DNA of 64,000 bases from an uncultured Anaerolineaceae bacterium (GCA_964570315.1 CAZMXX010000001.1:3649-67648), one strand, 5' to 3'; positions 13,440 through 64,000 are shown, counted from the first letter of the stretch. The notes: generated by a model from the sequence alone, not told the origin. A program made the numbers and translations.

Positions 13440-13954
13440 AACGATGGATAATCATCACCCTGACGTTGGTATTGTTTTTCGCGGTGGCAAGCATCTTTGT
13501 GGAAGCGCAAGCGCCGAATACCGGCGGCTCGGATGCGCCTGCCCGCGTCATCACGGACGATGAAGTCAATGCAATCGCCAAACAACTCTACTGTCCCGTC
13601 TGCGAAAACACTCCGCTGGATGTGTGCCCCACCCAAGCCTGCAAAGACTGGCGCGAATTAATTCGGCAGCAATTGAGCGACGGCTGGACAGAGCAGCAAA
13701 TCAAAGATTATTTTGTGGCAAGCTTCGGACCGCGGGTGTTGGCAAATCCACCAAATAGAGGATTCACATCGCTGGTGTGGCTGCTACCCATTGCGGCACT
13801 GCTGGCAGGGGGCGCATTCGTCTGGCGGCTTCTGCGGCAGTGGCAGATACAGCACCGCACCAACGCCGATACCGTTGAGCCGATAGATGAAGCTCCGGAT
13901 ATTCCACCTTCGTTATTGGAACAAATAGAAAAAGACGTTGAAGCCAAGTTTTAA
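13436..13954 (+). CDS. ccmH: Cytochrome c-type biogenesis protein CcmH
   Basis: ATGA overlap with the ccmF stop. Signal/TM segment, LYCPVCENTPLDVC (CcmH CxxC motif), C-terminal TM. The upstream part of ORF 13244-13954 overlaps ccmF and is discounted. Confidence 0.85.
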   Translation: MKRWIIITLTLVLFFAVASIFVEAQAPNTGGSDAPARVITDDEVNAIAKQLYCPVCENTPLDVCPTQACKDWRELIRQQLSDGWTEQQIKDYFVASFGPRVLANPPNRGFTSLVWLLPIAALLAGGAFVWRLLRQWQIQHRTNADTVEPIDEAPDIPPSLLEQIEKDVEAKF

Positions 13955-49943: not shown

Positions 49944-51624
49944 ACTCACTAGCCTGAAAGACCGTATCAGCAATTTCATCACGCCGGAGCGCACCGCACC
50001 CCGTTGGACGCGGGCATTGCCGTATCTCACCCTGATTGCGTTCGGCGTGTTGTTGTTCATTTTGGCGGGCGCGGGATGGGAATATACCAACAGCTCGGAG
50101 TTTTGCGGCACGGCGTGCCACACCATGCCGCCGGAATACGCCTCCTACAAAGCTTCACCGCACGCCAACGTAAAATGCGTGGAATGTCACATCGGGCGCG
50201 GATACATCGCCACCCAATTCACCCGCAAAGCCGGCGACATGACCCATGTGTTCAAATATATCGGCGCGGAATATGAAGTGCCCATCTACATCAAAAGTAT
50301 GCGCCCCGCCGAGCAGATTTGCGAAAAGTGCCACAACGCGCAAAAATATTCGGATGACAGTCTGCGCCAAATTCAGCATTTTGATGCCGAAAACAATAAC
50401 GCTATGACCACCACTTTTTTGGCGTTCAAAACCGGGGGCGGCACGTCAACGCAGGGGCAGGGAAAGGGCATCCACTGGCACACCGAAAACACCGTGGAAT
50501 ACATCGCGGTGGATGCACCCTACCTTGAGCAGAAAATTCCCTGGGTGCGGGTGACCTATGCCGACACCGGCGAAACGGCTGAATTCGTGGACATCACCGC
50601 AGACCTGCCCGCCGATTTTCAACCCCAAAACGCCGCGCGGATGAAAACCATGGACTGCACCACCTGCCACAATCGCATCGCCCACACCTTCCCCAACCCG
50701 TCGGATGCGCTGGATGACGCGATGGCGCGCGGCATCATTTCGCCGCAAATTCCATACATCAAAAAGAACGCCGTCGCCGTGATTGAGCGCGAATACCCCA
50801 CCATCGAAGATGCGCTTTTCGCCATAAAAGGCTTGAAAGATTATTACGCCGAAAATTGGTCGGAATATTACGCCGAAAATCAGGTAGTGGTTGATGCTGC
50901 CGTGGACAATCTGGCGGTGATGTACAAAAATATGGTCTTCCCCACCATGGACATCACTTGGGATACCCACCCCGACAACGTGGGGCACGATGAATCGGCG
51001 GGCTGTTTCCGCTGCCATGACGGGAAACATCTGAAAGTGAACAGCGACACCGACGTCATCTCCGCCGAATGCAACTTGTGTCACACTATCCCCGCCACCA
51101 CCACCGCCGACGGAACCATCCCCCCGCTCGCCGTCGCCGATGCCTTCCAGCCGGAATCGCACGCCGACAGCTTGTGGATTGCCCGCCATCGCTTCACATT
51201 CGATGACACCTGCGAAGGCTGCCACACCATTGAAAACCCCGGCGGCGCGGATAACACCGGCTTCTGCGCCAACAGCGCGTGCCACGCCTCGGAATTCAAG
51301 TATGCCGGGTTCAACACGTCGAGCATTCTGGCAATGGTCAATCGTTTGGACGACGGCTTGCCGCGCTATCCGGGGGCAAACCTCACGTGGGATGACCTCA
51401 TTTCGCCCATCATGCAAAATCGGTGTGTGGTCTGCCACAATGAAAACACAACCCTCAATTTGAGCGATTATACTTCGGTGATGGATAGCGGGACGGTTAT
51501 ACCGGGCAATGCTGCGGAAAGCGCGCTGGTGACGGTTCAATCTGCCGGACACACCAACGCCCTCCCCGCCGATGCCACAGACTGGCTGAAGGCATGGATT
51601 GACGCCGGTGCGCCGGAAAAATAA
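49936..51624 (+). CDS. NapC/NirT/NrfH-like membrane-anchored multiheme cytochrome with an extended C-terminal heme domain
   Basis: 8-nt overlap with the upstream gene. N-terminal TM followed by TNSSEFCGTACHTMPPEY (NapC/NirT-like first heme site, but CX3CH). 7 canonical CxxCH motifs plus CANSACH (CX4CH). The C-terminal CVVCHN...VIPGNAAESAL resembles a PSCyt1-type domain. Confidence 0.85.
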   Translation: MRKLTSLKDRISNFITPERTAPRWTRALPYLTLIAFGVLLFILAGAGWEYTNSSEFCGTACHTMPPEYASYKASPHANVKCVECHIGRGYIATQFTRKAGDMTHVFKYIGAEYEVPIYIKSMRPAEQICEKCHNAQKYSDDSLRQIQHFDAENNNAMTTTFLAFKTGGGTSTQGQGKGIHWHTENTVEYIAVDAPYLEQKIPWVRVTYADTGETAEFVDITADLPADFQPQNAARMKTMDCTTCHNRIAHTFPNPSDALDDAMARGIISPQIPYIKKNAVAVIEREYPTIEDALFAIKGLKDYYAENWSEYYAENQVVVDAAVDNLAVMYKNMVFPTMDITWDTHPDNVGHDESAGCFRCHDGKHLKVNSDTDVISAECNLCHTIPATTTADGTIPPLAVADAFQPESHADSLWIARHRFTFDDTCEGCHTIENPGGADNTGFCANSACHASEFKYAGFNTSSILAMVNRLDDGLPRYPGANLTWDDLISPIMQNRCVVCHNENTTLNLSDYTSVMDSGTVIPGNAAESALVTVQSAGHTNALPADATDWLKAWIDAGAPEK

Positions 51625-51651
51625 TTCCTCGTTCCATCATAATTCCTCCCA

Positions 51652-51681
51652 AGCCACCATCTGCGGATGGTGGCTTTTTTT
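51652..51681 (+). terminator. Rho-independent terminator ending the cytochrome cluster
   Basis: agccaccatc-tgcg-gatggtggct (10-bp perfect stem) followed by tttttt. Confidence 0.88.
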
Positions 51682-52013
51682 GTTCTCCGCCAATTTCGTA
51701 TCTTTCGGCAACTTCTTCCGTCAAACATAAAGGCAAGATTCACCGTGCCGCATCGGCATCCGACATTCACGTTATTTTTACGCTATTTTTACGAAAGATT
51801 CACCGCGCACCATATCTTCAACGTAAAAACCACGTCATTAGCAGCAACAAACAAATAACCGGCTTAAAAAAGATTTAAGGTTCCTTAACCTTGTTTTAAA
51901 TACAGTTCCTCAGCTTTTTGTTATTGTTGGTATCACGACATACCTGCATTCTCACCACTCCGACAATGAGCCGTCCCAAGTTCTTCAAGTTTGTGAAAGG
52001 TAATATTTCAAAT

Positions 52014-53285
52014 ATGGTTCGCATACTCTCAACCCTTCTCTCCTCCATTGCGCTGGCTGTTGCCGCAATGTTTGTGGCATCAATGAGTTTGCGCCCGGTG
52101 CAGGCGCAAGCGCCGACCGCCACCGCCGGCAATTCGCTGATTTGGCCACTCTCCGGCACAACCACCCCCGATGTCGCTTCATCGCCGTTTGGTCCGCGCT
52201 GGCAAGCTTCGCAAAACCGTTACGATTATCACCCCGGCATGGATTTACCCGCGCCGCAAAACGACCCCGTTTATGCCGTCGCCGACGGGGTGGTGACAGA
52301 AGTGGGTTGGCTTTCGGCGAGCGCGGGGTTGGGCGTGGTGATATATCATCCCACACAGAATTTATATTCCGCCTATCTGCATTTGAATAGCACTTCGGTG
52401 GCGGTCAGCGATGCCGTCACGCAGGGGCAGGTCATCGGCGCGGTGGGCGATACCGGCATCACCGATTTTATGCACGTGCATTTTGAAATCCGGTTGACCG
52501 CCACAAACTATCCGACCTCCACGCGCAATCCGGTGGGGTATCTGCCCATTGCCGATGTCTCCACCCCAACCATCCGCATCGGCAGTTTGAACAGCAATCC
52601 TTTCGACAGCGCCACTGTTTCGCTGGTGATTACCGCCGCCCGCACCGAGTTGGACGTGAACGCCATCACCGTGACCGTGCGCGACAAAGCGACGGGCGCA
52701 GTGGTGGACACCCACTCGGTTGATTTGAATCAACGCATCCCCACCGGCTCGGACACGCTGACAACCGCCGATGTCACGCTGCAACCCGCGCGATTCAATA
52801 CTTCCACCACAGAATATGAGTTGACAGCGAATTTCAATTTGCATGCGAATGACAGTTTCACGCTCACCGCAGAGGTCGCCGATGTGGCGGGACACACGGC
52901 GTCGGTGTCGCAGGTGGCGTATGATACCACGCCCCCCGCGCAAATTGATTCGCTTTCCGCCCTGTGGCGCACCGATGGCGGGGTGGATTTGCGCTGGACG
53001 GCGCCGGGCGACAACGGGATGGTCGGGATGGCGGTGCAGTATGATATTCGATACAGCGGTTCACCCATCGACAGTTTTTCATGGTACGGCGCAACGTCCA
53101 TCACCTCGCCGCCGACGCCGGTGACGGGGGGCACAGCGCAAACGTTCACCGTGCCCAGCCCCCTGCCCGACCCGGTATACTTCGCCATTAAAACCACCGA
53201 CAATGAAGGCAACCAATCGCTATTGTCCAATTCGGCGCAGGCGCACGCTGTATGGCGCGTCTTTTTGCCCCTAATTGTCAAATGA
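52014..53285 (+). CDS. Secreted M23 (LytM-type) metallopeptidase with Ig/FN3-like C-terminal domains and an FLPLIVK C-terminal tail
   Basis: Signal peptide (ALAVAAMFVASMSLRPVQAQA). M23 motifs YHPGMD (HxxxD) and MHVHFE (HxH). FN3-like segment (DLRWTAPGDNG...YDIRYS). Ends VWRVFLPLIVK. Confidence 0.85.
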   Translation: MVRILSTLLSSIALAVAAMFVASMSLRPVQAQAPTATAGNSLIWPLSGTTTPDVASSPFGPRWQASQNRYDYHPGMDLPAPQNDPVYAVADGVVTEVGWLSASAGLGVVIYHPTQNLYSAYLHLNSTSVAVSDAVTQGQVIGAVGDTGITDFMHVHFEIRLTATNYPTSTRNPVGYLPIADVSTPTIRIGSLNSNPFDSATVSLVITAARTELDVNAITVTVRDKATGAVVDTHSVDLNQRIPTGSDTLTTADVTLQPARFNTSTTEYELTANFNLHANDSFTLTAEVADVAGHTASVSQVAYDTTPPAQIDSLSALWRTDGGVDLRWTAPGDNGMVGMAVQYDIRYSGSPIDSFSWYGATSITSPPTPVTGGTAQTFTVPSPLPDPVYFAIKTTDNEGNQSLLSNSAQAHAVWRVFLPLIVK

Positions 53286-53372
53286 TTTTCAACCTGAACG
53301 GACAGTGTTTTCCGACACGCCCGCAGCAAATTATTTTCAGCAATCTATGTATTTAATTCGGAGGAAACTTAT

Positions 53373-56099
53373 ATGAAAGTATCTACATTCACCCCCGTTG
53401 CATCCCGCCTGAAATCTCTGGTATGGGTTTTGGTGGCTGCCATCGCTCTGACCGGCGGATTGTTGGCGGCACTGGCAGCGACAGCGGTCGCATCCGCGCC
53501 ACAAGAAGCGCAAGCGGTGACGGGCGGCGCGCGGAGCGTCGCCACAATTTCCCTGCCCAACCAAAGCGGGCTGGAACCCTACGCAATGGCATACAATTCA
53601 TCAAACGGGTACATTTACGTGACCAACAACAACACCAACGATGTCTCGGTCATCGCCGGGTCAACCGTCATCGCCCGCATTCCGGTGGGGAGCGGTCCGC
53701 GCGGCATCACCTATAATACGGGGAACGGGCGAATGTATATCGCCAATAAATCCTCCGACAGCGTCAGCGTGATTAATGGCACCACCAAAGAAGCCGACAT
53801 TCCCGTCGGCAATCGCCCGTCGAATATCAAATTCAACCCGGCAAACAATTACGTGTATGTCGCCGACACATTGAGCGACACCGTGACCATCATTGATGGA
53901 CCCAACGTCATTGCGACCGTGCCGGTGGGCAATCACCCCAGTGTGCTGGTGGTGAACGACAACGCCGCTTCGCCAAATTACGGCGACGTGTATGTGACCA
54001 ATCTTTTGAGCGATACCGTGACCATCATCGGCGGGGCGAATGGCAAAACGGTGCTTGGCACGCTGCCCACGGGCGGCATCCGCCCCACCGACCTGACCTT
54101 CAACCCGAACAGCGGGTATGTGTATGTGGTGAACACCTATAGCGACACGCTGACCACCAAAGGGAGCGTGACGGTGATTGACAGCGCCACCCGCGCGGTG
54201 AAGCGCGTTTTTTCGGTCAACACCCGCCCCACCGCCATCACCGCCGACCGGGGGAACGATAACGCCTATGTGCTGAACACCGGCGGCGACAGCGTGAATG
54301 TTCTGCGCCGTTCCGGGCGCGCCCTGCCCCAAAGCTGGTTCCGGGTGGGGAATTATCCGCGCCGCGTGCGGGTAGACCCGGTGACGCATATGGTGTACAT
54401 CGCCAACGCATACAGCGATACCGTCACCGTGTTGGACGGCAACGCCCCCGACAGCACCGTCGCGGTGAGCGTCGCCGGGACGGTGAATGTGGGCGATGCG
54501 CCGCAAGCCATCCAAATTGACCCGACGAATCACAACGTGTATGTGGGTAATCGCGGGGGCAATACCATTTCCATATTGAACGGCACATCGCTGGTGGGAA
54601 CTATTCCCGCGCAGTATTACCCCACCCACATCGCCATCAATCCGAACAACGGTTACGCCTACGTGCCCATGCGCGGCGGCAATGTGGTGCGAATTTACAA
54701 CGGCACATCGCTGGTGAAAGAAGTGCCGGTGCGCCACAACCCGCGCGCGGTCGCCATCAACCCCGCCACCAACATCGCCTATGTCGCCAATTTCGACAGC
54801 AAATCCATCTCGGTGATTGATGCCGCATACAACCCGATTGCACGCATCAAACTGGGGCAAAAGGGTCCCATCCATGTGGCGGTTGACAGCGCCAACAATC
54901 TGGTTTATGCCGCCAACTGGTACAGCGACACCGTCAGCGTGATAAACACTTCAACCAACGCGGTCATCGGGGCGGTAGCAGTGGGCGCAAACCCCCGCTA
55001 CATTGCCATTGACCCCAATACCGGCTTCGCCTACGTGGCGAATACCTATGGCAACACGGTATCCGTGTTGCAGGGAACCACCGTGAAAGCGACGCTCGCG
55101 CCGGGATTGGAACCCCGTTTCGCCCTGTACAATCCGGTGAACGGCAATATTTACGTCAGCAATAAAACCGATGGCACGGTCAGCGTATTCAACGGGCTGA
55201 GCAAACTCGGTGACGTGACCGTCGGGGCGCAACCGGAAGATATGGCAGTGGATGCCGCCGGGCGGGTGTATGTCTCCAATTATGCGGGTAATTCCGTTTC
55301 CATCATTGATGGAACCGGCTTGGTCGCCACCGTTGCGGTGGGGCAAGGACCCGAAGGCATCACGGCGGGCAGCAATGGGCAGGTTTTTGTCAGCAACACG
55401 CTGGACAACACCGTGAGCGTCATCGAAGGAACATCCGTTGTTGCCACCTATGCCGTGGGCGCGAGACCCCGTTCCGTCGCTTACAGCCCCACCACCGACC
55501 AAGTTTTCGTCGCTAATTACGATGGCGCATCCATCTCGGTGCTGAGTACCGAACCCCCGCGCGGCGATTTCTCCGGCACACCGCGCAGTAACGCCGCCGC
55601 GCCCGCCGGCGTCAGCTTCAGCAGCGTCGTCACCGGCGCGGTGACAGGCTATGCGTGGACATTCGGCGACGGCACGACCGCCACCGCCGCCAATCCGAGC
55701 CACACCTACACCACCCCCGGCAATTACGGCGTCTCGCTCACCGTGAGCGGTCCCGGCGGCTCGACGGTCATCTCCAAAACGGATTACATTTTCGTCGCCG
55801 CGCCCACCGCCGGACCGGAAGCCAATTTCTCCGCGAACCAAGTTGCGGGCGAAGTGCCTTTCACCGTCACCTTCACCGCCGTCACCACCAACACCGTGGA
55901 CACCTGGGCATGGGATTTCGGCGATGGCAGTACCGCTACCACCGGACCCACCGTTCAGCACACCTACACCGCCGTCGGCGATTATGAAGTGCGCCTGACC
56001 GTCGGCAACAGCACCGACAACTTCATCGTCGATAAACCGGCATACATTCACGCCAGCAATCCGGTATTCTATGTGTTCCTGCCGTTGGTGTTGAAGTAA
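53373..56099 (+). CDS. YVTN-family beta-propeller repeat protein with two C-terminal PKD domains and an FLPLVLK C-terminal tail
   Basis: Signal peptide. About 15 repeats of the pattern P-x-x-I-x-x-N-P-x-x-G-x-V-Y-V-x-N-x-x-S-D-T-V-S-V-I. Two PKD-like units (WTFGDGTTA..., WDFGDGSTA...). Ends NPVFYVFLPLVLK. Confidence 0.87.
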   Translation: MKVSTFTPVASRLKSLVWVLVAAIALTGGLLAALAATAVASAPQEAQAVTGGARSVATISLPNQSGLEPYAMAYNSSNGYIYVTNNNTNDVSVIAGSTVIARIPVGSGPRGITYNTGNGRMYIANKSSDSVSVINGTTKEADIPVGNRPSNIKFNPANNYVYVADTLSDTVTIIDGPNVIATVPVGNHPSVLVVNDNAASPNYGDVYVTNLLSDTVTIIGGANGKTVLGTLPTGGIRPTDLTFNPNSGYVYVVNTYSDTLTTKGSVTVIDSATRAVKRVFSVNTRPTAITADRGNDNAYVLNTGGDSVNVLRRSGRALPQSWFRVGNYPRRVRVDPVTHMVYIANAYSDTVTVLDGNAPDSTVAVSVAGTVNVGDAPQAIQIDPTNHNVYVGNRGGNTISILNGTSLVGTIPAQYYPTHIAINPNNGYAYVPMRGGNVVRIYNGTSLVKEVPVRHNPRAVAINPATNIAYVANFDSKSISVIDAAYNPIARIKLGQKGPIHVAVDSANNLVYAANWYSDTVSVINTSTNAVIGAVAVGANPRYIAIDPNTGFAYVANTYGNTVSVLQGTTVKATLAPGLEPRFALYNPVNGNIYVSNKTDGTVSVFNGLSKLGDVTVGAQPEDMAVDAAGRVYVSNYAGNSVSIIDGTGLVATVAVGQGPEGITAGSNGQVFVSNTLDNTVSVIEGTSVVATYAVGARPRSVAYSPTTDQVFVANYDGASISVLSTEPPRGDFSGTPRSNAAAPAGVSFSSVVTGAVTGYAWTFGDGTTATAANPSHTYTTPGNYGVSLTVSGPGGSTVISKTDYIFVAAPTAGPEANFSANQVAGEVPFTVTFTAVTTNTVDTWAWDFGDGSTATTGPTVQHTYTAVGDYEVRLTVGNSTDNFIVDKPAYIHASNPVFYVFLPLVLK

Positions 56100-56121
56100 C
56101 TTATTTTCGGAGATTCTGGGT

Positions 56122-59100
56122 ATGGTTCCCTTGCGTAGCGGGTTAAAAACAAAACCACAGAGAAACAGAGAAACTGAGAAAACCGGGAAATATTTTGCCC
56201 GCTGTTCCTCTGCGTCTTTGCGGTTAAACATCAACAAATGCATTTATCTACCGATGCTGCTACTACTGGCGTGGACACTGGCGGCATGCGGCACATCCGC
56301 CGCACCGGCGCAACCGAGCGCGCAATCTCTCTTCGCCAATGGCTATGCCGCCGCGCGCAAAGGCGACTGGGCGGCAGCGGAAACGGCATTCTCGGCGGGG
56401 CTGGCGCAAAACCAAAACCACGGCGAACCCTTCACCGGGCGCGGCTGGGCGCGGCTGAAACAGAATAAATTCGCCGCCGCGCTGGATGATTTCCGGCAAG
56501 CTATCGCCCTCACCCCCGATGATGCATCGGCGTGGGCGGGGCTGGGACGCGCCCAACTCAAATTGGGCGATTACACCTCGGCGCGGGAAAGCTTGACCCA
56601 AGCCGTCACCCTGTCTCCCTTCCGTTCCGGGGCATTCATTGACCGGGGATTGACTTTTTACAAACAGGGCGATTACGAATCCGCCATCGCCGATTTCAGC
56701 CGGGGCATCCGCGCCAACAATCGCACCCAACGCGGATTTTACAATCGCGGGCTGGCATACATGAAACTGGGGCAAACCGCCACCGCCATCGCCGATTTTT
56801 CCGCCGTGATTGAGCGCAACCCGCAATATGCCGCCGCCTACCTGCAACGCGCCGCCGCATATCAGGCGCGGGGAGATTTCGCGCCCGCGCAAGCCGATTT
56901 GGATGCGGCGCTGGCGCAAAACCCCGCCGATGCCGCCGGGTATGTCACCCGTGGCACGCTCTTCGCCGCGCAAAAAGATTACGCCCGCGCGCTGGATGAT
57001 TTCACCCGCGCAGTGGAACTTTCGCCCGCCGATGCCAAAATCCGGCGCGAACGGGGCAAGGTTTTTTATGCCCGGGGCGATTACGTTTCCGCGCTGGATG
57101 ATTTCCGGCAAGCCCTGACGCTGAACCCCAACGATGCCTCCGCCCAATATTGGCAGGGGCTGGCACACTACCGGCGCGGCAATTATGCGGAAGCCATCGC
57201 CGCGATGGACGCCGCTTTTAACCTCACCCCGCCGACGCCCACCCGGCAATACCAACGGGGATTGGCGTTTTATCGCACCGGCGATTTTCCATCCGCCCAA
57301 AAAGATTTTGATGCCGCCATCACCGCCGGGCTGGATACCGCCAACGGCTACTATTATCGCGGGCTGGCGCAGTATCATCAGCAAAATTATGCCGCCGCCG
57401 CAGACGATTTCAGTGCGGCGATTGCCCGCGCCGAAAGTTTCACCAATGCGTATCGCCAACGCGGTTGGGCAAAATACCGGCTGGGCGAATATACCGCCGC
57501 CCGCGCCGATTTCGAGCAGGCGCGCGCGCTCGGCGCGGGGGATGCGGTGGCATACCCGCTGGGGCTGGTCGCGTACCGGCTGGGCAATTATCCGCAAGCC
57601 ATCGCCGAGATGAACGCCGCGTTTGAGGTTTCCGCGCCGACGCCCGCCCGGCAATACCAACGGGGACTGGCGTTTTATCGCAACGGCGATTTTGAATCGG
57701 CGCTGGCGGACATTGAAGCCGCCATCAACAACGGCTATGATTCTGCCAACGCCTTTTATTATCATGGCTTGGCGGCATACCATTTGGATAATTTCCCACG
57801 CGCGGTGGTGGATTTCAGTCAGGCAGTCGAACGGTCGCCCGATATGAGCGGGGCGTATCGCCAGCGCGGGCTGGCGGAATACCGGCTGGGACAGCTCGAT
57901 TTGGCGCAGAAAGATTTTGCCGTCGCCGCCAACCTTTCCGCCGATGCGCCCGCCGAATATGCGCTGGGGCTGGTGCAGTATCACGCGCAGGAATACCGGC
58001 AAGCGGTGGAAAATATGAGCGTCGCTTTTGAGAAAGCCGCCCCCACGCCCGCACAGCGCTATCAGCGCGGGCTGGCGTTTTATCAATTGGGCGATTATGA
58101 ATCGGCGCGGGCGGATTTTGATGCCGCTATCGCCGCCGGGCTGGACACCGCCAACGGCTATTATTATCGGGGACTGACGGCGTACCATCTGAATGATGAT
58201 GAAGCCGCCCGGGCAGATTTTGATGCCGCCATCGCCCGCGCGCCCGACTTCGGCAGCGCGTACCGTCAACGCGGGCTGATTGCGTACCGGCAGGGCGATT
58301 ATACTGCCGCCACCGCCGACTTGGAGACCGCCCAACAATTGGGGAAGGGTATCGCTTCGGCGTATACGCTGGGGCTGGCGGCATACCGGCAGGGTGATTA
58401 CGAGCAAGCCGCGCAGGCGATGACTCTCGCATTTGAAGCCGCGCCGCCCACCCCCGCCCAACGCTATCAGCGCGGGCTGGCATACTACCGGCAGGGCGAT
58501 TATCAAGCCGCTTATGATGACATTTCCACCGCGATAGCGGACGGATACAGCACGGCATACGGCTTCTATTATGCCGGATTGAGCGCCTATCATTTGAAAA
58601 AATACGCCCGCGCCGTCGACTATTTCACCGACTCGCTGAAGCAGGATGGTGCGCCGACGGCCGCCTATCGCCAGCGCGGATTGGCGCGATACAAAGCGGG
58701 ACAGGTGCAACTCGCCCGCGCCGATTTGGACTTGGCAATCAAGCTTCGCCCGTATGACGCCCGCGTCTACTTTTATCGGGGGCTGCTCATCCGCGACGAG
58801 GGCGATTTACCCGCCGCCATTCAGGATTTCAACCGCGCACTGGAAATTGCGCCGAACGATACGATCATTTTGTACACGCGCGGACGCGCCTATTATGCCC
58901 GCGCCGATTTCGCCGCCGCCGCCGCCGATTTCGCCCGCGTGCGGACACTCGACCCCGCCCACAGCGGCGCCAGCTATTATTTGGGGCTGACACAGTACAA
59001 AACCAACGACTATGCCGACGCGGTGCAAAGTTTCTCCACCGCGATTCAACTTGTGCCGACCAACGGCTGGGCGCTCTACTATCGCGGGCTGGCGTACCGG

Positions 59101-59208
59101 CGATTGGGGCAATTCACCGCCGCCAAAGCCGATTTACAGCGCGTGCTAGAAGTCGCGCCGGGGTCTCGCGCCGCTACCCGCGCCGCGCGGGTGCTGAAGA
59201 AATTGTAG
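56122..59208 (+). CDS. Large TPR-repeat protein (about 28-30 TPR units)
   Basis: 34-aa TPR periodicity throughout (xxYxxRGxAxxxxGDYxxAxxDFxxAIxLxP). The start is uncertain: ATG 56122, or ATG 56254 which gives MLLLLAWTLAACG (lipobox-like). Confidence 0.85.
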   Translation: MVPLRSGLKTKPQRNRETEKTGKYFARCSSASLRLNINKCIYLPMLLLLAWTLAACGTSAAPAQPSAQSLFANGYAAARKGDWAAAETAFSAGLAQNQNHGEPFTGRGWARLKQNKFAAALDDFRQAIALTPDDASAWAGLGRAQLKLGDYTSARESLTQAVTLSPFRSGAFIDRGLTFYKQGDYESAIADFSRGIRANNRTQRGFYNRGLAYMKLGQTATAIADFSAVIERNPQYAAAYLQRAAAYQARGDFAPAQADLDAALAQNPADAAGYVTRGTLFAAQKDYARALDDFTRAVELSPADAKIRRERGKVFYARGDYVSALDDFRQALTLNPNDASAQYWQGLAHYRRGNYAEAIAAMDAAFNLTPPTPTRQYQRGLAFYRTGDFPSAQKDFDAAITAGLDTANGYYYRGLAQYHQQNYAAAADDFSAAIARAESFTNAYRQRGWAKYRLGEYTAARADFEQARALGAGDAVAYPLGLVAYRLGNYPQAIAEMNAAFEVSAPTPARQYQRGLAFYRNGDFESALADIEAAINNGYDSANAFYYHGLAAYHLDNFPRAVVDFSQAVERSPDMSGAYRQRGLAEYRLGQLDLAQKDFAVAANLSADAPAEYALGLVQYHAQEYRQAVENMSVAFEKAAPTPAQRYQRGLAFYQLGDYESARADFDAAIAAGLDTANGYYYRGLTAYHLNDDEAARADFDAAIARAPDFGSAYRQRGLIAYRQGDYTAATADLETAQQLGKGIASAYTLGLAAYRQGDYEQAAQAMTLAFEAAPPTPAQRYQRGLAYYRQGDYQAAYDDISTAIADGYSTAYGFYYAGLSAYHLKKYARAVDYFTDSLKQDGAPTAAYRQRGLARYKAGQVQLARADLDLAIKLRPYDARVYFYRGLLIRDEGDLPAAIQDFNRALEIAPNDTIILYTRGRAYYARADFAAAAADFARVRTLDPAHSGASYYLGLTQYKTNDYADAVQSFSTAIQLVPTNGWALYYRGLAYRRLGQFTAAKADLQRVLEVAPGSRAATRAARVLKKL
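57193..58812 (+). repeat. Four tandem 405-bp (135-aa, four-TPR) super-repeats inside the TPR gene
   Basis: Units start at 57193, 57598, 58003 and 58408. Each begins A(I/V/A)xxMxxAF-x4-PTPxxxYQRGLA(F/Y)Y and shares the DTANGYYYRGL and AYRQRGL landmarks. Confidence 0.85.
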
Positions 59209-59283
59209 CTGAAACGCCCCCGTCCAAACTTGGGCGACCACAAGGGTCGCCCCTGTAACAGCGGGGAATTAAAGGAATGTTTT

Positions 59284-61335
59284 ATGCGTTACCGTCTTTT
59301 TTTGCTGATAATTTTCATCCTGCTGATACCCGCTACCGCGCGCGCCGACGACCCCGCCGCGCCGAAAAATCGGGTGCAAGCCAGCGTCACATTTAAAGAG
59401 CTGGGGGAAAAAACGCTCACGCTCAAAACCATTTACGACCAATCGTCCGTCTCGTTCAGTCTGCCCGCCGGGCGAAAAATTGAACGGGCAACACTGAATA
59501 TGGAATTTTCGCACGGGAAAAAGCTGCTGTCCGCCGCCTCCGACCTGACCATTGTTTTGAATGCCGAGCCGGTGGCGAATATCATCCTTTCGCCGGAAAA
59601 CGCCGACCGCAACATCATCCCCATCCCCTTGCCCGCCGAAGCGTTCATCCCCGGCGAAAATACCCTCACCTTCCGCCTGAATCAACGTTTGCGCACCAAA
59701 GGTTGCGGTGATGTGGGCGACAGCCGCTTGTGGACCAAAATCTATTCCGCCAGTTTTCTGGAATTGGAAACGGTGGACGAACCCATCCCCGCCGATTTGG
59801 GGCAGTATCCCCGCCCCTTCACCAGTTTGACCCCGCTAGCGGACAGCCCGCAGGTATTGTTCGTCCTGCCCGATGCACCCACCGCCACCGAATTGACCGC
59901 CGCCGCCGCGATTGCCGCCGCGCTGGGGCAATCCGCCGCGTGGAAACAGCCGCCATTGCAGGCGGTCACGGTAAGTCGGCTCAACACCGCCGACACGGTG
60001 AACAACCATCTGCTCGCCATCGGCAGCGCCGAACGCAACCCGCTGGCGCAAAATGCCGCCCCCGGTCTCACCATTGCCCCTTCCCCGTACAATGCCAACC
60101 GGCTGCTGTTGACGGTCTCCGGCGCTACCGAGGCGGAATTGGCGCAGGCGGGCAACATGCTCGCCACCCCATCGGCGTGGGCAGATTTTTCCGGCGCCAC
60201 CATCCCCCCCGCCGATGTTTCGCCGCGCCCTGTGCCCGTGCGCACCACTCGCGCCACCTTCGCGGAACTGGGTTTCTCCGACCGCCGTGTGCGGGGTATC
60301 GGCGCGCATGACATCTATTTCCCGATTGATATTCCGTACAATTGGAAACCGACCAGCGACGCTTCCATCGAAGTGCGCTTCAGCCACGCCTCGGTGCAGT
60401 TGGACGCCGCCACCTCGAAAATGAGCGCCTTCATCAACGGTTTCAAAGTGGCGGATGTAGCGTTGACCAAGCGGAACGACATCAACGGGCGGCTGGTGAT
60501 TCAACTTTCGCCGCGCCAGATTCATCCGGGGCGAAATTGGCTCCATCTCTCCTTCGATTTGCACGTGCAAAAAGAAGATTGCAACTTCCGCTATTTGCAG
60601 GAGGCGTGGGCAACCGTTTCGGCGGAGAAATCAACGCTGAATTTGGCGCACGTCAACAGCGAGCCGCCGTTGGAATTGCGCTATCTGCCCTCGCCGTTGG
60701 TGACGCCGGAAGATTTGAGCGCGGACATTTTTGTGCTGGCATCGCAACCCACCGCCGCCGAATTGACCGCGCTGGTGCGCACCGCCGCCAAACTGGGCAC
60801 GTATGTGTCGGTGGACGGGTTGCGCCCCCGCGCCACCACCGCCGACGCATTCAACCCCGCCGACGCGCCCGACAGCCATGTCATCGCCATTGGTGCGCCG
60901 GAAACCAATGCCCTGCTGGCGAAATATGATTCGGCGCTGCCGCAACATCTCATCCGTTCCCCGGAAAACGAGCCGGCATCCAATCAGGAAATTTTGGAAC
61001 CGTTGCCCGCGTCCATCGAATACAGTTCCGGTTACATTCAGGTTTTGCCCGCCCCGTGGGACTCGCGGGGGACGCTGATGGTGTTGAGCGCATTTGAAGA
61101 ACCCTTGCTGGCAAAAGCGGTGGACGCGCTCCCCACGCTGGGGAAACGGCTCAAAATACAGGGAAATGTGGCGGTCATCATGCCCGACCAAATCATCGGG
61201 CTGAACATCGGCAGCTTGGCGGAAGCGCAACTGCCCGACAATATGCGGCGACTGCTGGCGGCAATTCTCATCGGCGGATTTGCGCTCATCGGCGGATTCA
61301 GTTGGTGGGCATCCCGTCGCAGAAATGGAAAGTAG
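59284..61335 (+). CDS. BcsB-like (cellulose synthase regulatory subunit-like) protein with a C-terminal TM anchor (tentative)
   Basis: Signal peptide MRYRLFLLIIFILLIPATARA. Two internally similar modules (SVSFSLPAGRKIERATLNMEFSH...LTIVLNAEPVANI... and IYFPIDIPYNW...IEVRFSH...SAFINGFKVADV...), each followed by a linker domain. C-terminal TM LLAAILIGGFALIGGFSWW. This is the duplicated architecture of BcsB. Confidence 0.65.
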   Translation: MRYRLFLLIIFILLIPATARADDPAAPKNRVQASVTFKELGEKTLTLKTIYDQSSVSFSLPAGRKIERATLNMEFSHGKKLLSAASDLTIVLNAEPVANIILSPENADRNIIPIPLPAEAFIPGENTLTFRLNQRLRTKGCGDVGDSRLWTKIYSASFLELETVDEPIPADLGQYPRPFTSLTPLADSPQVLFVLPDAPTATELTAAAAIAAALGQSAAWKQPPLQAVTVSRLNTADTVNNHLLAIGSAERNPLAQNAAPGLTIAPSPYNANRLLLTVSGATEAELAQAGNMLATPSAWADFSGATIPPADVSPRPVPVRTTRATFAELGFSDRRVRGIGAHDIYFPIDIPYNWKPTSDASIEVRFSHASVQLDAATSKMSAFINGFKVADVALTKRNDINGRLVIQLSPRQIHPGRNWLHLSFDLHVQKEDCNFRYLQEAWATVSAEKSTLNLAHVNSEPPLELRYLPSPLVTPEDLSADIFVLASQPTAAELTALVRTAAKLGTYVSVDGLRPRATTADAFNPADAPDSHVIAIGAPETNALLAKYDSALPQHLIRSPENEPASNQEILEPLPASIEYSSGYIQVLPAPWDSRGTLMVLSAFEEPLLAKAVDALPTLGKRLKIQGNVAVIMPDQIIGLNIGSLAEAQLPDNMRRLLAAILIGGFALIGGFSWWASRRRNGK

Positions 61336-61344
61336 GAGAACGAC

Positions 61345-62202
61345 ATGCAAAAAAACACCCTCTGGCTCAAATTGTGGGCATTCGGTTTAACCCTGGCGAT
61401 ACTCGCCGCAACCTATCTCATCATCGCCGTCAACCCCATCGAAATTGCGCCGGTCTACTTGGGCTTGCTGGCAATCGTCGCCGGCATCGGGCTGGTGACC
61501 AACGTGCTGGGCGGCAGTATCGCCTCGGTGGGCGCAGTGTTCGCCATCGTGTTCATCAATCAACTCAGCGGCATTTATCCCCGAGAGAGTCTGTTCATCA
61601 ATGTCGCCACCGAATTGATTGCCCTGCTGCTGGTGGGACCGCTGGCGGGGCGCACCGCCGCGCTGATTGACCGCATCTATCGCCGCGCCGTCCACTGGCG
61701 CACCCGCGCCCGCGAACTTTCGGCGCACGATGAAACCTTCGGCGTGCTGAAACCGGATTTCGCCAAAACGCGGCTCGACGAAGAAATTTTACGCGCCAAA
61801 ACTTTCAACCGCCCCCTTTCGGTGGTGATGATGGACATCGTTCCCCGCCATGCCCCCGCCGACGGCAACGGCTCGGCGCACGTTTTGCAGGCGATGGTGC
61901 GCGTGGCACGCTCGCTCACCGCCCCGCCCGCCGTGGTCGCCCGCACCGGCGAAAATCAACTCTCGCTCATTCTGCCCGAATACACCGCCGAAAGGGCAGC
62001 GGAACTTTCGCACCGACTGATGCGCCATGCCGAACAGACTCCCTTCTTCCCCCCGGAAGATTCGGCGTCGCTGGGGAACCCCATCAGCAGTTGGGGAACG
62101 CTCCGCGCGGGAATTGCCGCGCTGAACGGACAACCCGAAACGGGCGAAAGTTTGCTGGCACGGGCGCAAACCGCGCTGAACGGAGAAAACGCGCATGTTT
62201 GA
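61345..62202 (+). CDS. Membrane protein with a degenerate GGDEF-like domain
   Basis: Four N-terminal TM segments. The C-terminal domain aligns with the GGDEF fold, but the signature reads ARTGENQLSLIL instead of R-x-GGDEF, and the upstream D-x-FK-x-x-ND/GH-x-x-GD motifs are missing. Confidence 0.7.
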   Translation: MQKNTLWLKLWAFGLTLAILAATYLIIAVNPIEIAPVYLGLLAIVAGIGLVTNVLGGSIASVGAVFAIVFINQLSGIYPRESLFINVATELIALLLVGPLAGRTAALIDRIYRRAVHWRTRARELSAHDETFGVLKPDFAKTRLDEEILRAKTFNRPLSVVMMDIVPRHAPADGNGSAHVLQAMVRVARSLTAPPAVVARTGENQLSLILPEYTAERAAELSHRLMRHAEQTPFFPPEDSASLGNPISSWGTLRAGIAALNGQPETGESLLARAQTALNGENAHV

Positions 62203-63469
62203 ACTGCTTCTGGTCATTGCCCTTTATCTCATCTTCATTGTTTATTGGCGCATCCGGCAAATTAATCACGAGCGCCGCATCCACGCCTACGATGTTCGCA
62301 TCCACGTGAACGGCATTCGCGGCAAAAGTACCGTCACCCGGCTGGTGGCGGGCGCACTGCGCAACGCGGGCTACCGCACCGTGGCGAAAACAACCGGCTC
62401 GGCGGCGGTGACGATTGATTTGGACGGGCGCGACATCCCCATTGAGCGACGGGGCGCGCCCAACGTGAAAGAACAGCAGGACATCATCGCCGAATGGGAA
62501 CCCCTGCACGCCGAAGCGATGGTGATTGAGTGTATGGCGCTCCAGCCGAAATATCAGGAATGGACGGAAAAGATGGTGCTGCAAGCGCACATCGGGGTGA
62601 TAACCAACGTGCGGGAAGACCATCAGGATGTGATGGGCGAGACCCTGCCCGAAATCGCGGTCAGTTTGGCGCACATGTGCCCGTTCAACGGCTATCTCGT
62701 CACCGCGGAATACGACCCCGAATTGCAGGCAATTCTGCGCGCCGAAGCGGAAAAGCGCGGCTCGAAATTAATTGTCGCCGACCCCGCCCGCGTGCGCGAC
62801 GATGAAATCGCGCAATTCGATTACCTTTCTTTCAAAGACAATCTCGCCATCGGGCTGGCAATTGCCGATTTGCTGGGCATTGACCGCGATGTGGCAATGG
62901 ATGGGATGATCCATTCCCAGCCGGACATCGGCGTGGTGCGCCTGCAAAACACCGAAATTCGCGGCAAGCCGGTGATGTGGGCGAATCTGTTCGCCGTGAA
63001 TGACCGCGAATCGATGATCATCAGCATGGATATGCTCAACGCCTATTGCGACGAAAAGACGCTGAAAATCGGCATTCTGAATAACCGTTATGACCGCGAA
63101 CGCCGCGCGGAACAGTTCGGCGATATTGCGGTGAAAGATTTGTCCTTCGATTGGCTCATCACCTTTGGCGCGTTTGAAGATTTGGTGACCCGTAAATTGA
63201 AGGAAAACGGTTTCCCCGCCGAGTACATCGTCAATTTGGGGTTCAGCGTCAATCCCTCGCTGAATGAAATTCTGGACGCCATCGCCGGGATGATTCCCGA
63301 CGGCTACCGCGCCATGCTGGTCGGGTTCGTCAATATTCACACCCCGCAGGCGGAATTGATGATGGAACACTTTGAAGGGCTGGACAGCGCACATCACACC
63401 GCCACCACAGACACGGCGTATGCCCTCGGCTATTGGCAACGGCAACGATTTGAAATGGCACATCTTTAG
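62195..63469 (+). CDS. pgsB: Poly-gamma-glutamate synthase PgsB/CapB (Mur-ligase family)
   Basis: N-terminal TM, then IHVNGIRGKSTVTRLVAGALRNAGYRTVAKTTGS...ECMALQP...GVITNVREDHQDVMGETL. This follows the remembered Bacillus subtilis PgsB sequence closely. 8-nt overlap with the upstream gene. Confidence 0.9.
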   Translation: MFELLLVIALYLIFIVYWRIRQINHERRIHAYDVRIHVNGIRGKSTVTRLVAGALRNAGYRTVAKTTGSAAVTIDLDGRDIPIERRGAPNVKEQQDIIAEWEPLHAEAMVIECMALQPKYQEWTEKMVLQAHIGVITNVREDHQDVMGETLPEIAVSLAHMCPFNGYLVTAEYDPELQAILRAEAEKRGSKLIVADPARVRDDEIAQFDYLSFKDNLAIGLAIADLLGIDRDVAMDGMIHSQPDIGVVRLQNTEIRGKPVMWANLFAVNDRESMIISMDMLNAYCDEKTLKIGILNNRYDRERRAEQFGDIAVKDLSFDWLITFGAFEDLVTRKLKENGFPAEYIVNLGFSVNPSLNEILDAIAGMIPDGYRAMLVGFVNIHTPQAELMMEHFEGLDSAHHTATTDTAYALGYWQRQRFEMAHL

Positions 63470-63579
63470 TTCTTGGTAGTCAGTTTTTGGTTATCAGTTT
63501 TCAGTTTTACGGCAAGCAACGCCCCCTCTCTGATAACTGATTACTGAAAACCAACCGCTGTTTTTCGGGAGAAAAAAGC

Positions 63580-64000
63580 ATGCATAATTACGGTATCCCC
63601 ACCGAAGTTGTCCGGCTGGTGTTGGCATTGGGCATCATCGTCAGTATATTAATCTATGAACGTTTCCGGCTAACGGGCGGCGCGGCAGTGGTTGCCGGGT
63701 ATCTGGGCATTTTTGTCAATCGCCCGCTGTATATCATCACCACCATCGGCATTGCGCTCATCACCTATTTTGTCGTGCAGCGGTTCATCGCCCGCCGCAT
63801 GTTTCTGTACGGACGGCGGCGGCTGGTGGTGATGGTGATGGTCGGCATGGTATTTGAGGGCATCGCCGGGACGGTGGCATATTTCACCGCCTCGGATGTC
63901 GCTTGGCTCATCGGGCTGTACGGGGTGGGGTTTGTGCTGCCGGGACTCATCGCGCAGGATATGGAACGGCAGGGCGTGTGGCGCACCGTCTTCACCACGC
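63580..64000 (+). CDS. pgsC: Poly-gamma-glutamate synthase component PgsC/CapC (3' end beyond the window)
   Basis: My own translation from the ATG at 63580 (GGGAG RBS): MHNYGIPTEVVRLVLALGIIVSILIYERFRLTGGAAVVAGYLGIFVNRP...MFLYGRRR...VLPGLIAQDMERQG. It matches the PgsC landmarks GYLG-x-x-FN-x-P, LYGRR and VPGLIA. Absent from the ORF track because no stop falls in the window. Confidence 0.85.
   Translation, partial: MHNYGIPTEVVRLVLALGIIVSILIYERFRLTGGAAVVAGYLGIFVNRPLYIITTIGIALITYFVVQRFIARRMFLYGRRRLVVMVMVGMVFEGIAGTVAYFTASDVAWLIGLYGVGFVLPGLIAQDMERQGVWRTVFTT

Follow-up and report, generated by a model that had tools for sequence, protein, structure and literature searches.

How poly-gamma-glutamate (PGA) leaves the cell that makes it is, to our knowledge, an unsolved problem, even in Bacillus, where the classical locus has the gene order pgsBCA(E). 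The locus described here raises this question in a new setting. It lies at the end of a 64,000-nucleotide stretch of DNA (referred to below as the window; bases 3649-67648 of contig C1) from the metagenome-assembled genome (MAG) of an uncultured member of the Anaerolineae (Chloroflexota), which is 4.08 Mb in size, is divided among 545 contigs and is 89.5% complete. Here, the genes for the PGA synthase proteins PgsB and PgsC follow genes for a relative of the cellulose synthase subunit BcsB and for a membrane protein whose GGDEF domain is degenerate. Why does an amide ligase have such neighbors? The answer that we consider probable is that all of them belong to a conserved six-gene operon that makes, extrudes and trims a PGA-type polymer, using a BcsB-family ectodomain subunit, in a cell with a single membrane. 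The genes of this cassette that are present in the window are listed below; sizes are in amino acids (aa), TM denotes transmembrane and clade A is the clade to which the window belongs.

56122..59208, + strand: TPR lipoprotein, at most 1028 aa, with more than 20 TPR units and the lipobox LAAC; the conserved genes of the clade-A cassette start with this one
59284..61335, + strand: BcsB-family protein P0001, 683 aa (PF03170)
61345..62202, + strand: 4-TM degenerate-GGDEF protein P0002, 285 aa (PF00990)
62195..63469, + strand: PgsB, P0003, 424 aa, a membrane-anchored ATP-dependent amide ligase (TIGR04012)
63580..64000, + strand: 5' part of pgsCC, P0004 (PF14102), which runs beyond the window to the contig end

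The last four genes had been placed at these positions in an original prediction made from the window by itself, and hidden Markov model (HMM) matches and open reading frames (ORFs) confirm all four of them. The two tight junctions that it described are also real. The BcsB gene and the P0002 gene are separated by a gap of 9 nt with an AGGAG ribosome-binding site, and the stop codon of the P0002 gene and the start codon of pgsB overlap by 8 nt (ATGTTTGA). Another ribosome-binding site, AAAGGA, lies 5' of the BcsB-gene ATG at 59284. The terminator scan detected no terminator-like site above background from the TPR gene to pgsCC; the counts from the promoter and terminator scan were no better than those from shuffled sequences, except for one strong terminator-like hairpin at 51651-51676, 5' of an M23 peptidase gene that is described below. 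The gene junctions, together with the conservation of gene order reported below, support the prediction that these four genes are translationally coupled and conserved as a single unit.

The identification of pgsB and pgsC was borne out. PgsB scores 363.1 bits against the TIGR04012 PgsB equivalog model, which has a cut-off of 222.7, and the protein has an N-terminal TM helix and the P-loop GIRGKST. No PgsB structure is present in the Protein Data Bank (PDB). The PgsC fragment in the window matches PF14102 (CapC) with 89 bits and scores 91.6 bits against TIGR04011 (cut-off 96.45), a value obtained with the 5' part of the gene only. The identity of PgsC is as predicted, with one correction that concerns its size. 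The contig ends 363 nt 3' of the window, inside pgsCC, and the ORF, which is 261 aa long and still open at that point, is not the normal gene of ~150 aa. In relatives (e.g., L008:169-1170:-) the protein has 333-334 aa and two CapC domains (147.7 bits), the halves of which are 26% identical (E 7e-18). By this comparison, PgsCC consists of two CapC domains in tandem, the result of an internal duplication, and an old one, since the halves have diverged to 26% identity; it looks like a pseudo-dimeric PgsC. The duplication is common to all of the Chloroflexota loci recovered and to every Actinomycetota locus with a long enough contig. We found no description of a duplicated PgsC.

The position of the contig end is itself a recurring feature. 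Contig C1 and contigs of four same-genus assemblies (G002:C494, G003:C47, G006:C86 and G010:C357) all end within pgsCC or no more than ~170 bp 3' of it. Because five assemblies break there, this would suggest that a repeat or strain-variable segment lies directly 3' of pgsCC in this genus.

P0001, the 683-aa protein that was claimed to be BcsB-like, is a member of the BcsB family by its HMM match, the result on which the claim had been staked. It scores 234.3 bits against PF03170 (BcsB; cut-off 21, E 3e-69) over profile positions 3-553 of 606 and, by sequence alone, it matches the E. coli BcsB chains 9fmt, 6yg8 and 7l2z in the PDB (E ~5e-10). B. subtilis, which served as a control, has a PF03170 match that we take to be YdaN. 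Reading of the protein sequence indicates a signal peptide at the N-terminus (MRYRLFLLIIFILLIPATARA) and a single C-terminal TM anchor followed by a basic tail (LLAAILIGGFALIGGFSWWASRRRNGK); the ectodomain between them consists of two modules. P0001 is under every NCBIfam BcsB equivalog cut-off (best 137.5 bits vs 750 for the PRK11114 equivalogs). Judged by these scores, it belongs to the family and is not a cellulose-type orthologue. The window was also said to have no BcsA, which is correct, and there is none elsewhere in the assembly: the top glycosyltransferase of the BcsA type (GT2), a 498-aa protein encoded on contig C63, has 139 bits vs the TIGR03030 cut-off of 699. A bcsA gene just outside the window had been named as a possible objection. 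None lies downstream in the relatives with continuing contigs, and no BcsA (a GT2 with PilZ) adjoins BcsB in any of the ~20 cassettes.

The claim of a degenerate GGDEF protein also holds. P0002 matches PF00990 (GGDEF) with 29 bits (cut-off 23.8). An AF2 model built from 13 homologues (pLDDT 85) has four N-terminal membrane helices, the last of which extends as a stalk to residue 127 and is followed by an alpha/beta domain. In Foldseek searches the top PDB matches of this domain are all GGDEF domains, namely 3ign (TM score 0.75, E 6e-11), DgcB and PleD, with TM scores up to 0.75-0.79 and E values down to 2.5e-11. Since basic residues flank the TM bundle, the domain is placed, by prediction, in the cytoplasm. 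The fold is a true GGDEF fold and the active-site motif is destroyed. In an alignment of the 13 homologues, the GG(D/E)EF position reads TGENQ in P0002 and GSDRM, GDDQV, GPDRV, SATRV and others in its relatives, the metal-binding Asp (DxD-type position) is unconserved, and RPL and ILPE are invariant structural residues. The dedicated P0002 family is small, with 16 clusters at E<1e-30 among 1.84 billion representative proteins. Weaker full-length matches are proteins of ~280-300 aa and bona fide 4-TM GGDEF cyclases; because the latter are among them, P0002 looks like a decayed membrane cyclase. Long matches were also checked as candidate fusions of a GGDEF-like protein to PgsB, but those checked (P0121, P0122, P0190, P0096 and P0151) are ordinary multi-domain GGDEF proteins, and no P0002-PgsB fusion was seen among the long matches checked from the 1.84 billion proteins.

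Does the GGDEF-like protein sense a nucleotide? The original prediction had proposed that a second messenger gates the system, and this part of it has no support in the sequence, as RxxD, GG(D/E)EF and the metal-binding Asp are all unconserved. The same machine could in principle be switched on by cyclic diguanylate (c-di-GMP), or by a related nucleotide, bound to the degenerate GGDEF domain, as in YdaK, PssE and PelD. P0002 has the architecture of YdaK (four TM helices together with a degenerate GGDEF domain) and its gene adjoins a BcsB-type gene (PMC5422440; PMC4125290), its full-length relatives include active-looking 4-TM GGDEF cyclases, and the genome encodes one canonical cyclase and one PilZ protein, so that c-di-GMP is probably made. 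However, YdaK, a degenerate-GGDEF receptor, requires R202 and D205 of its RxxD motif for function (PMC5422440). The RxxD I-site position reads RSLT in P0002 and RSAT, RAAT, TSSS, ASAS and others in the family, and no residue at the primary I-site position is conserved family-wide. The spacing is also wrong, with 8 residues between RSLT and the motif vs five for an I-site, which corresponds to a 3-residue insertion before the motif. An Rfam scan (E<=1) detected neither a c-di-GMP riboswitch nor any other riboswitch or RNA element in 51000-64000. We therefore regard gating by a nucleotide as unlikely. What remains of the proposal that parts of two exopolymer machineries are mixed here is that PgsB/PgsC, the amide-ligase polymerase, is joined by a membrane protein with the GGDEF fold and by an ectodomain protein of the BcsB family.

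The canonical diguanylate cyclase, the sole one found in the assembly, is encoded on contig C387 (L128:2431-3279:-). It has 282 aa, 2 TM helices, the motif RYGGDEF and an REND I-site, and its gene adjoins that of a 505-aa polytopic protein without a Pfam match. PilZ is represented by one ORF, on contig C507, which contains an in-frame TAA.

The linkage of these genes is conserved. A PgsB-based scan of species-representative genomes gave 80 loci, which were then searched with tblastn and HMMs. The GGDEF-like gene lies directly 5' of pgsB, and pgsCC directly 3' of it, in all 15 Chloroflexota loci; the GGDEF-like gene has the same position, directly 5' of pgsB, in L118, L119, L131-L133 and L136. 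A BcsB-like gene is present in each of the 11 Chloroflexota loci with enough upstream flank. This gene order is kept as identity falls from 94% to 51% for PgsB, from 90% to 24% for BcsB and from 88% to 24% for the GGDEF-like protein. Look-ups that started from BcsB (P0005, P0023, P0054, P0047 and P0030) gave the same arrangement five times out of five, i.e., TPR, BcsB, a protein of ~280 aa, PgsB, PgsCC and a protein of ~330 aa. The full order, TPR lipoprotein, BcsB, GGDEF-like, PgsB, PgsCC and a PghP/YndL-like hydrolase lipoprotein, is found in ~20 Chloroflexota loci. The downstream context comes from the contigs L118, L119, L131-L133 and L040-L045; the same-genus contigs break after pgsCC. 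The linkage reaches a second phylum, as a BcsB fragment ends 10 nt before pgsB in the Acidimicrobiales locus L107 and BcsB adjoins pgsB-pgsCC in L108. Lack of co-occurrence in relatives had been named as a reason to abandon the idea, and the co-occurrence is complete. In an even sample of the Anaerolineae, PgsB is present in four of 201 genomes and two of 119 genera (the own genome, G002, G006 and G178), and the GGDEF-like gene is directly 5' of pgsB in all four. Therefore, the cassette is rare and patchy and travels as a unit.

These patterns bear on the suggestion that the genes for BcsB and the GGDEF-like protein serve an unrelated polysaccharide pathway, with its synthase elsewhere, and are merely located beside pgsB-pgsCC. 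Pairs of BcsB and a degenerate GGDEF protein do occur in Wzx/Wzy-type loci of the Anaerolineae, one of them on contig C90 of this genome, and the 498-aa GT2 on contig C63 would be a candidate synthase. Yet BcsB can diverge to 24% identity without loss of the adjacency, which is found again in the second phylum (L107 and L108), the stop codon of the GGDEF-like gene overlaps the pgsB start, and PgsB, although rare (4/201 genomes), occurs with this pair in every Chloroflexota locus where the contig allows the observation. In addition, the BcsB proteins of these loci cluster as a subfamily, as shown in the next paragraph. We consider a chance association of this type very improbable indeed.

A phylogenetic tree was calculated from 32 BcsB-domain proteins (IQ-TREE, LG+C20, quick search). 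A branch with an SH-aLRT value of 99 divides it. On the PGA side are 10 proteins from the window clade, three from a distant Anaerolineae clade and the BcsB of the Acidimicrobiia locus L108. The opposite side comprises 17 BcsBs from the same order as the window organism that either adjoin GT2 genes or are located beside, or fused to, Wzx-type flippases. The tree is unrooted; with that qualification, it makes a single origin of the PGA-linked BcsBs likely.

Contig C90 of the same genome has an example of such a fusion. A 1287-aa ORF (L125:4219-8082:+) consists of a Wzx/MOP-type flippase (PF13440, 275 bits) fused to BcsB (PF03170, 141 bits), and there is a weak GGDEF-like match at the start of the contig. 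The Wzx-BcsB fusion is also present in same-genus genomes, and G038 has the flippase and BcsB as separate neighboring genes.

What polymer would be made? One indication comes from the gene 3' of pgsCC, which in relatives with continuing contigs encodes a conserved lipoprotein of ~330 aa (c5). The top three distinct PDB matches to its AF2 model (pLDDT 77.5) are all poly-gamma-glutamate hydrolases, namely that of phage PM1 (21dc), YndL with bound PGA (5onj) and PghP (3a9l), with Foldseek E values of 1e-5 to 3e-5 and TM scores of 0.56-0.58; N-formylglutamate amidohydrolases come next. Residues H184, D188, H250, H319 and E321 are invariant in nine homologues, a further point of resemblance to the PghP/YndL phage-type hydrolases (PF05908). 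These residues are consistent with a zinc hydrolase, of which they would be the metal ligands. Unlike PghP and YndL, c5 is a lipoprotein, is longer by ~130 residues, contains a linker rich in Pro and Thr, and has additional helices in its N-terminal region. Its sequence signal is faint as well: three members had no Pfam match at E<=0.1, a faint precomputed PF05908 match exists for the L118 protein, and a profile search of PDB sequences gave nothing useful. The modeled fold would indirectly provide independent support for a gamma-glutamyl polymer as the product. The gamma-PGA-hydrolase-like gene that is found with the operon in relatives is also a point of resemblance to Bacillus, where PgdS/PghP-type enzymes lie near or act on PGA (PMC4497714).

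If a PGA-type polymer is the product, one expected partner is missing. The own genome gave no match to PgsA/CapA (PF09587, PGA_cap), and six genomes of the same genus, which include ones that are 96% and 98% complete, gave none that reached the cut-off. The downstream region, which had been recommended as a place to look for pgsA/capA or a glycosyltransferase, lies beyond the end of the own contig; the cassettes of the relatives have no glycosyltransferase and have CapA only in the L073/L114 branch. Omp85 was likewise not found in the own genome, and for this reason a single-membrane envelope would fit. Since no PgsA/CapA was found in the window clade, the BcsB-like protein may cover the role of PgsA/CapA there.

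The main alternative role for the BcsB-like protein is that of a wall-glycan tether. Its carbohydrate-binding modules would bind cell-wall glycan and either tether the synthase or present a glycan acceptor for the gamma-glutamyl chains, and the product would be an anchored capsule or a glycan-peptide conjugate. In the BcsB of cellulose synthase, the PF03170 modules bind carbohydrate (the Pfam name is CBM_BcsB), and BcsB modules from the same order occur on several sugar-polymer machines, both in GT2-linked loci and in the flippase fusion on C90. In addition, an M23 peptidoglycan peptidase gene is a neighbor in seven of 13 loci, and the ectodomain is still net acidic, which is not ideal for a polyanion. 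Against this role, the ~20 cassettes contain no glycosyltransferase, transpeptidase (CapD/GGT-type) or sortase-like gene, and the PGA-linked BcsBs cluster apart from the others, which suggests specialization. We consider the wall-glycan role improbable and favor a BcsB-like protein that takes part in export of the polymer.

Several observations weigh against the export model and should be considered together. First, BcsB and CapA can coexist: L073 (and probably L114) represents a distant Anaerolineae branch in which a 740-aa CapA (PF09587, 170 bits) is encoded between BcsB and the GGDEF-like protein, and because both are present in the L073 cassette, BcsB is not simply a CapA substitute. Second, most of the Actinomycetota relatives, with PgsBs that are 51-57% identical, have a bare pgsB-pgsCC pair beside rpoB/rpoC/fusA, so that the pgsB-pgsCC core may need no such partner. 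Around the 65 Actinomycetota pgsB-pgsCC loci, the only conserved accessory pattern is housekeeping synteny with rpoB, rpoC and fusA; CapA-like genes are present in eight of these loci and BcsB in two. Third, the BcsB of L032, which has a long branch and comes from a locus of the glycosyltransferase type, is placed on the PGA side of the unrooted tree. Fourth, a surface that is less acidic would be more favorable for a polyanion, but the trend in ectodomain net charge is weak and inconsistent, with medians of -15 for clade A, -24 for clade B, -39 for the non-PGA proteins and -41 for the Acidimicrobiia. Fifth, the own assembly contains neither c5 nor the 3' end of pgsCC, because the contig breaks first; a search for c5 gave low-complexity matches only. 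The completeness of the operon here is inferred from L118, the BcsB of which is 90% identical. Finally, the evidence is entirely computational and is derived from an uncultured MAG, in which the polymer is a predicted one.

With these points in mind, we propose the following model. The family assignments, the membrane topology signals, the tight coupling of the genes, their conserved order and the clustering of the PGA-linked BcsBs are observed; how the proteins associate physically, what polymer they make and what each of them does are inferred. PgsB, with a cytoplasmic Mur-ligase-type domain on its N-terminal TM helix, would polymerize glutamate together with the polytopic PgsCC, and the two proteins would also translocate the polymer. 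The BcsB-like protein would be held in the complex by its C-terminal TM helix, in the way that BcsB is held by BcsA, and would receive or guide the nascent polymer on the extracytoplasmic side. The GGDEF-like protein, presumably co-translated with PgsB, would be a cytoplasm-facing regulator or scaffold that is derived from a membrane diguanylate cyclase and contacts the ligase. The c5 lipoprotein hydrolase would release or size the polymer, and the TPR lipoprotein would scaffold the extracytoplasmic parts.

How does this system compare with known ones? Like the Bacillus PgsBCA(E)/CapBCADE systems, it has a PgsB equivalog, a PgsC/CapC domain and what is predicted to be a membrane-anchored complex, in a host that apparently has a single membrane. 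It differs from them in that a search of the genome and the genus did not reveal PgsA/CapA, that PgsC is an internal tandem duplication of ~333 aa, and that there are three extra conserved subunits, the BcsB-family protein, the 4-TM GGDEF-like protein and the TPR lipoprotein.

The resemblance to the BcsA-BcsB cellulose synthase (E. coli 6yg8, 9fmt and 7l2z) lies in the signal peptide, the two-module ectodomain, the C-terminal TM anchor and the location next to polymerase genes. In contrast, the partner polymerase here is an ATP-dependent amide ligase and not a GT2 glycosyltransferase, neither BcsA nor an adjacent PilZ domain is present, and P0001 falls below the BcsB equivalog cut-offs and into a separate subclade. 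Parallels to the pair as such are the B. subtilis ydaJKLMN and Listeria pssA-E operons, c-di-GMP-dependent exopolymer operons of monoderm Firmicutes in which a degenerate-GGDEF membrane protein is also found with a BcsB-type protein. In Listeria these are the c-di-GMP receptor PssE and the BcsB ortholog PssD (PMC4125290), and YdaK has four TM helices, as does P0002 (PMC5422440). However, the YdaM/PssC systems polymerize sugars by a GT2 where the present one has PgsB/PgsCC, and the YdaK/PssE receptors keep the RxxD I-site required for function, which P0002 does not have.

BcsB was reported to be "associated exclusively with cellulose synthases" until PssD was described (Chen et al. 2014, PMC4125290). 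It is thought to act in the passage of the polymer through the membrane and not in synthesis, and could take other polymers (PMC4125290). In the literature searched, we found no papers on PgsB with BcsB, on PGA with c-di-GMP and GGDEF, or on PGA in Chloroflexi with pgsB that describe this linkage. PgsB/PgsC with a BcsB relative and a dead-GGDEF protein is thus a combination of two known kinds that is not described in that literature. A wider proposal, which we put forward tentatively and would not be surprised to see fail, is that proteins of the BcsB family are polymer-agnostic partners of membrane polymerases on the extracytoplasmic side and that one subfamily has become dedicated to a polyamide synthase-translocon that works independently of PgsA and is composed of PgsB, the pseudo-dimeric PgsCC and a cyclase-derived regulator, in these Chloroflexota and a few Acidimicrobiia.

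If this is true, it would be the first BcsB with a partner that is not a glycosyltransferase, and it would provide a new handle on the exit of gamma-PGA. A BcsB subfamily that is strictly tied to PgsB/PgsCC, with no PgsA found, would mean that the BcsB fold is perhaps a general polymer-exit module. Within the Anaerolineae, BcsB and a dead GGDEF protein would form a portable accessory pair that is found with GT2 synthases, with Wzx/Wzy pathways and now with an amide ligase. The cassette would also offer a natural, compact six-gene system for the study of PGA export and its regulation.

The genes 5' of BcsB had been suggested to belong to the same envelope locus. This is correct for the TPR gene, which is constant in the window clade, and not for the other two, which are present in only seven of the 13 clade-A loci with enough flank and are listed here as facultative neighbors outside the core.

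51918..53285, + strand: M23 peptidase (PF01551, 84.5 bits), a facultative upstream neighbor
53373..56099, + strand: secreted beta-propeller (YVTN/lactonase-type) with 2 PKD domains (PF10282, PF18911, PF00801), a facultative neighbor

The M23 gene is absent from L118, L119, L133, L040, L043 and L044, and the propeller/PKD gene has the same distribution. In the TPR lipoprotein the lipobox LAAC follows a hydrophobic stretch, and the true start is possibly internal, near 56254. TPR proteins of 489-1114 aa are encoded directly 5' of BcsB in L036, L038, L040, L041, L044, L045, L118 and L119; the same slot is occupied in L131-L133 by unannotated genes for proteins of 489-735 aa. Between the TPR stop codon at 59208 and the bcsB start at 59284, the window has a perfect 8-bp GC-rich hairpin at 59232-59252 (GGGCGACC, loop ACAAG, GGTCGCCC). 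There is no T-run after it, and instead of terminating transcription it could affect the stability or processing of the mRNA.

Another conserved gene (c8), which is not in the window, is often located 5' of the TPR gene in relatives, at the following positions.

L041:2791-4050: c8
L043:3981-5225: c8
L044:680-1960: c8
L045:2771-4102: c8
L119:7246-8526: c8

The c8 protein has ~420 aa and no signal peptide. Its N-terminal part has an APHHG...EIHGH motif that is reminiscent of N-formylglutamate amidohydrolase or PghP, and its C-terminal part has weak CDC48_N/double-psi-barrel matches. Possibly the system has in c8 a partner that is located in the cytoplasm. The distant Anaerolineae cassettes are flanked by partner-switching genes (L073:3038-4702 and 13508-13843; L096:8167-8502; L114:8701-9075). 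One type encodes a STAS anti-sigma antagonist and another a product with what appear, from a reading of its sequence only, to be PAS, PP2C phosphatase and anti-sigma-kinase-like domains. Their presence is a hint that the cassette of that branch receives a different regulatory input.

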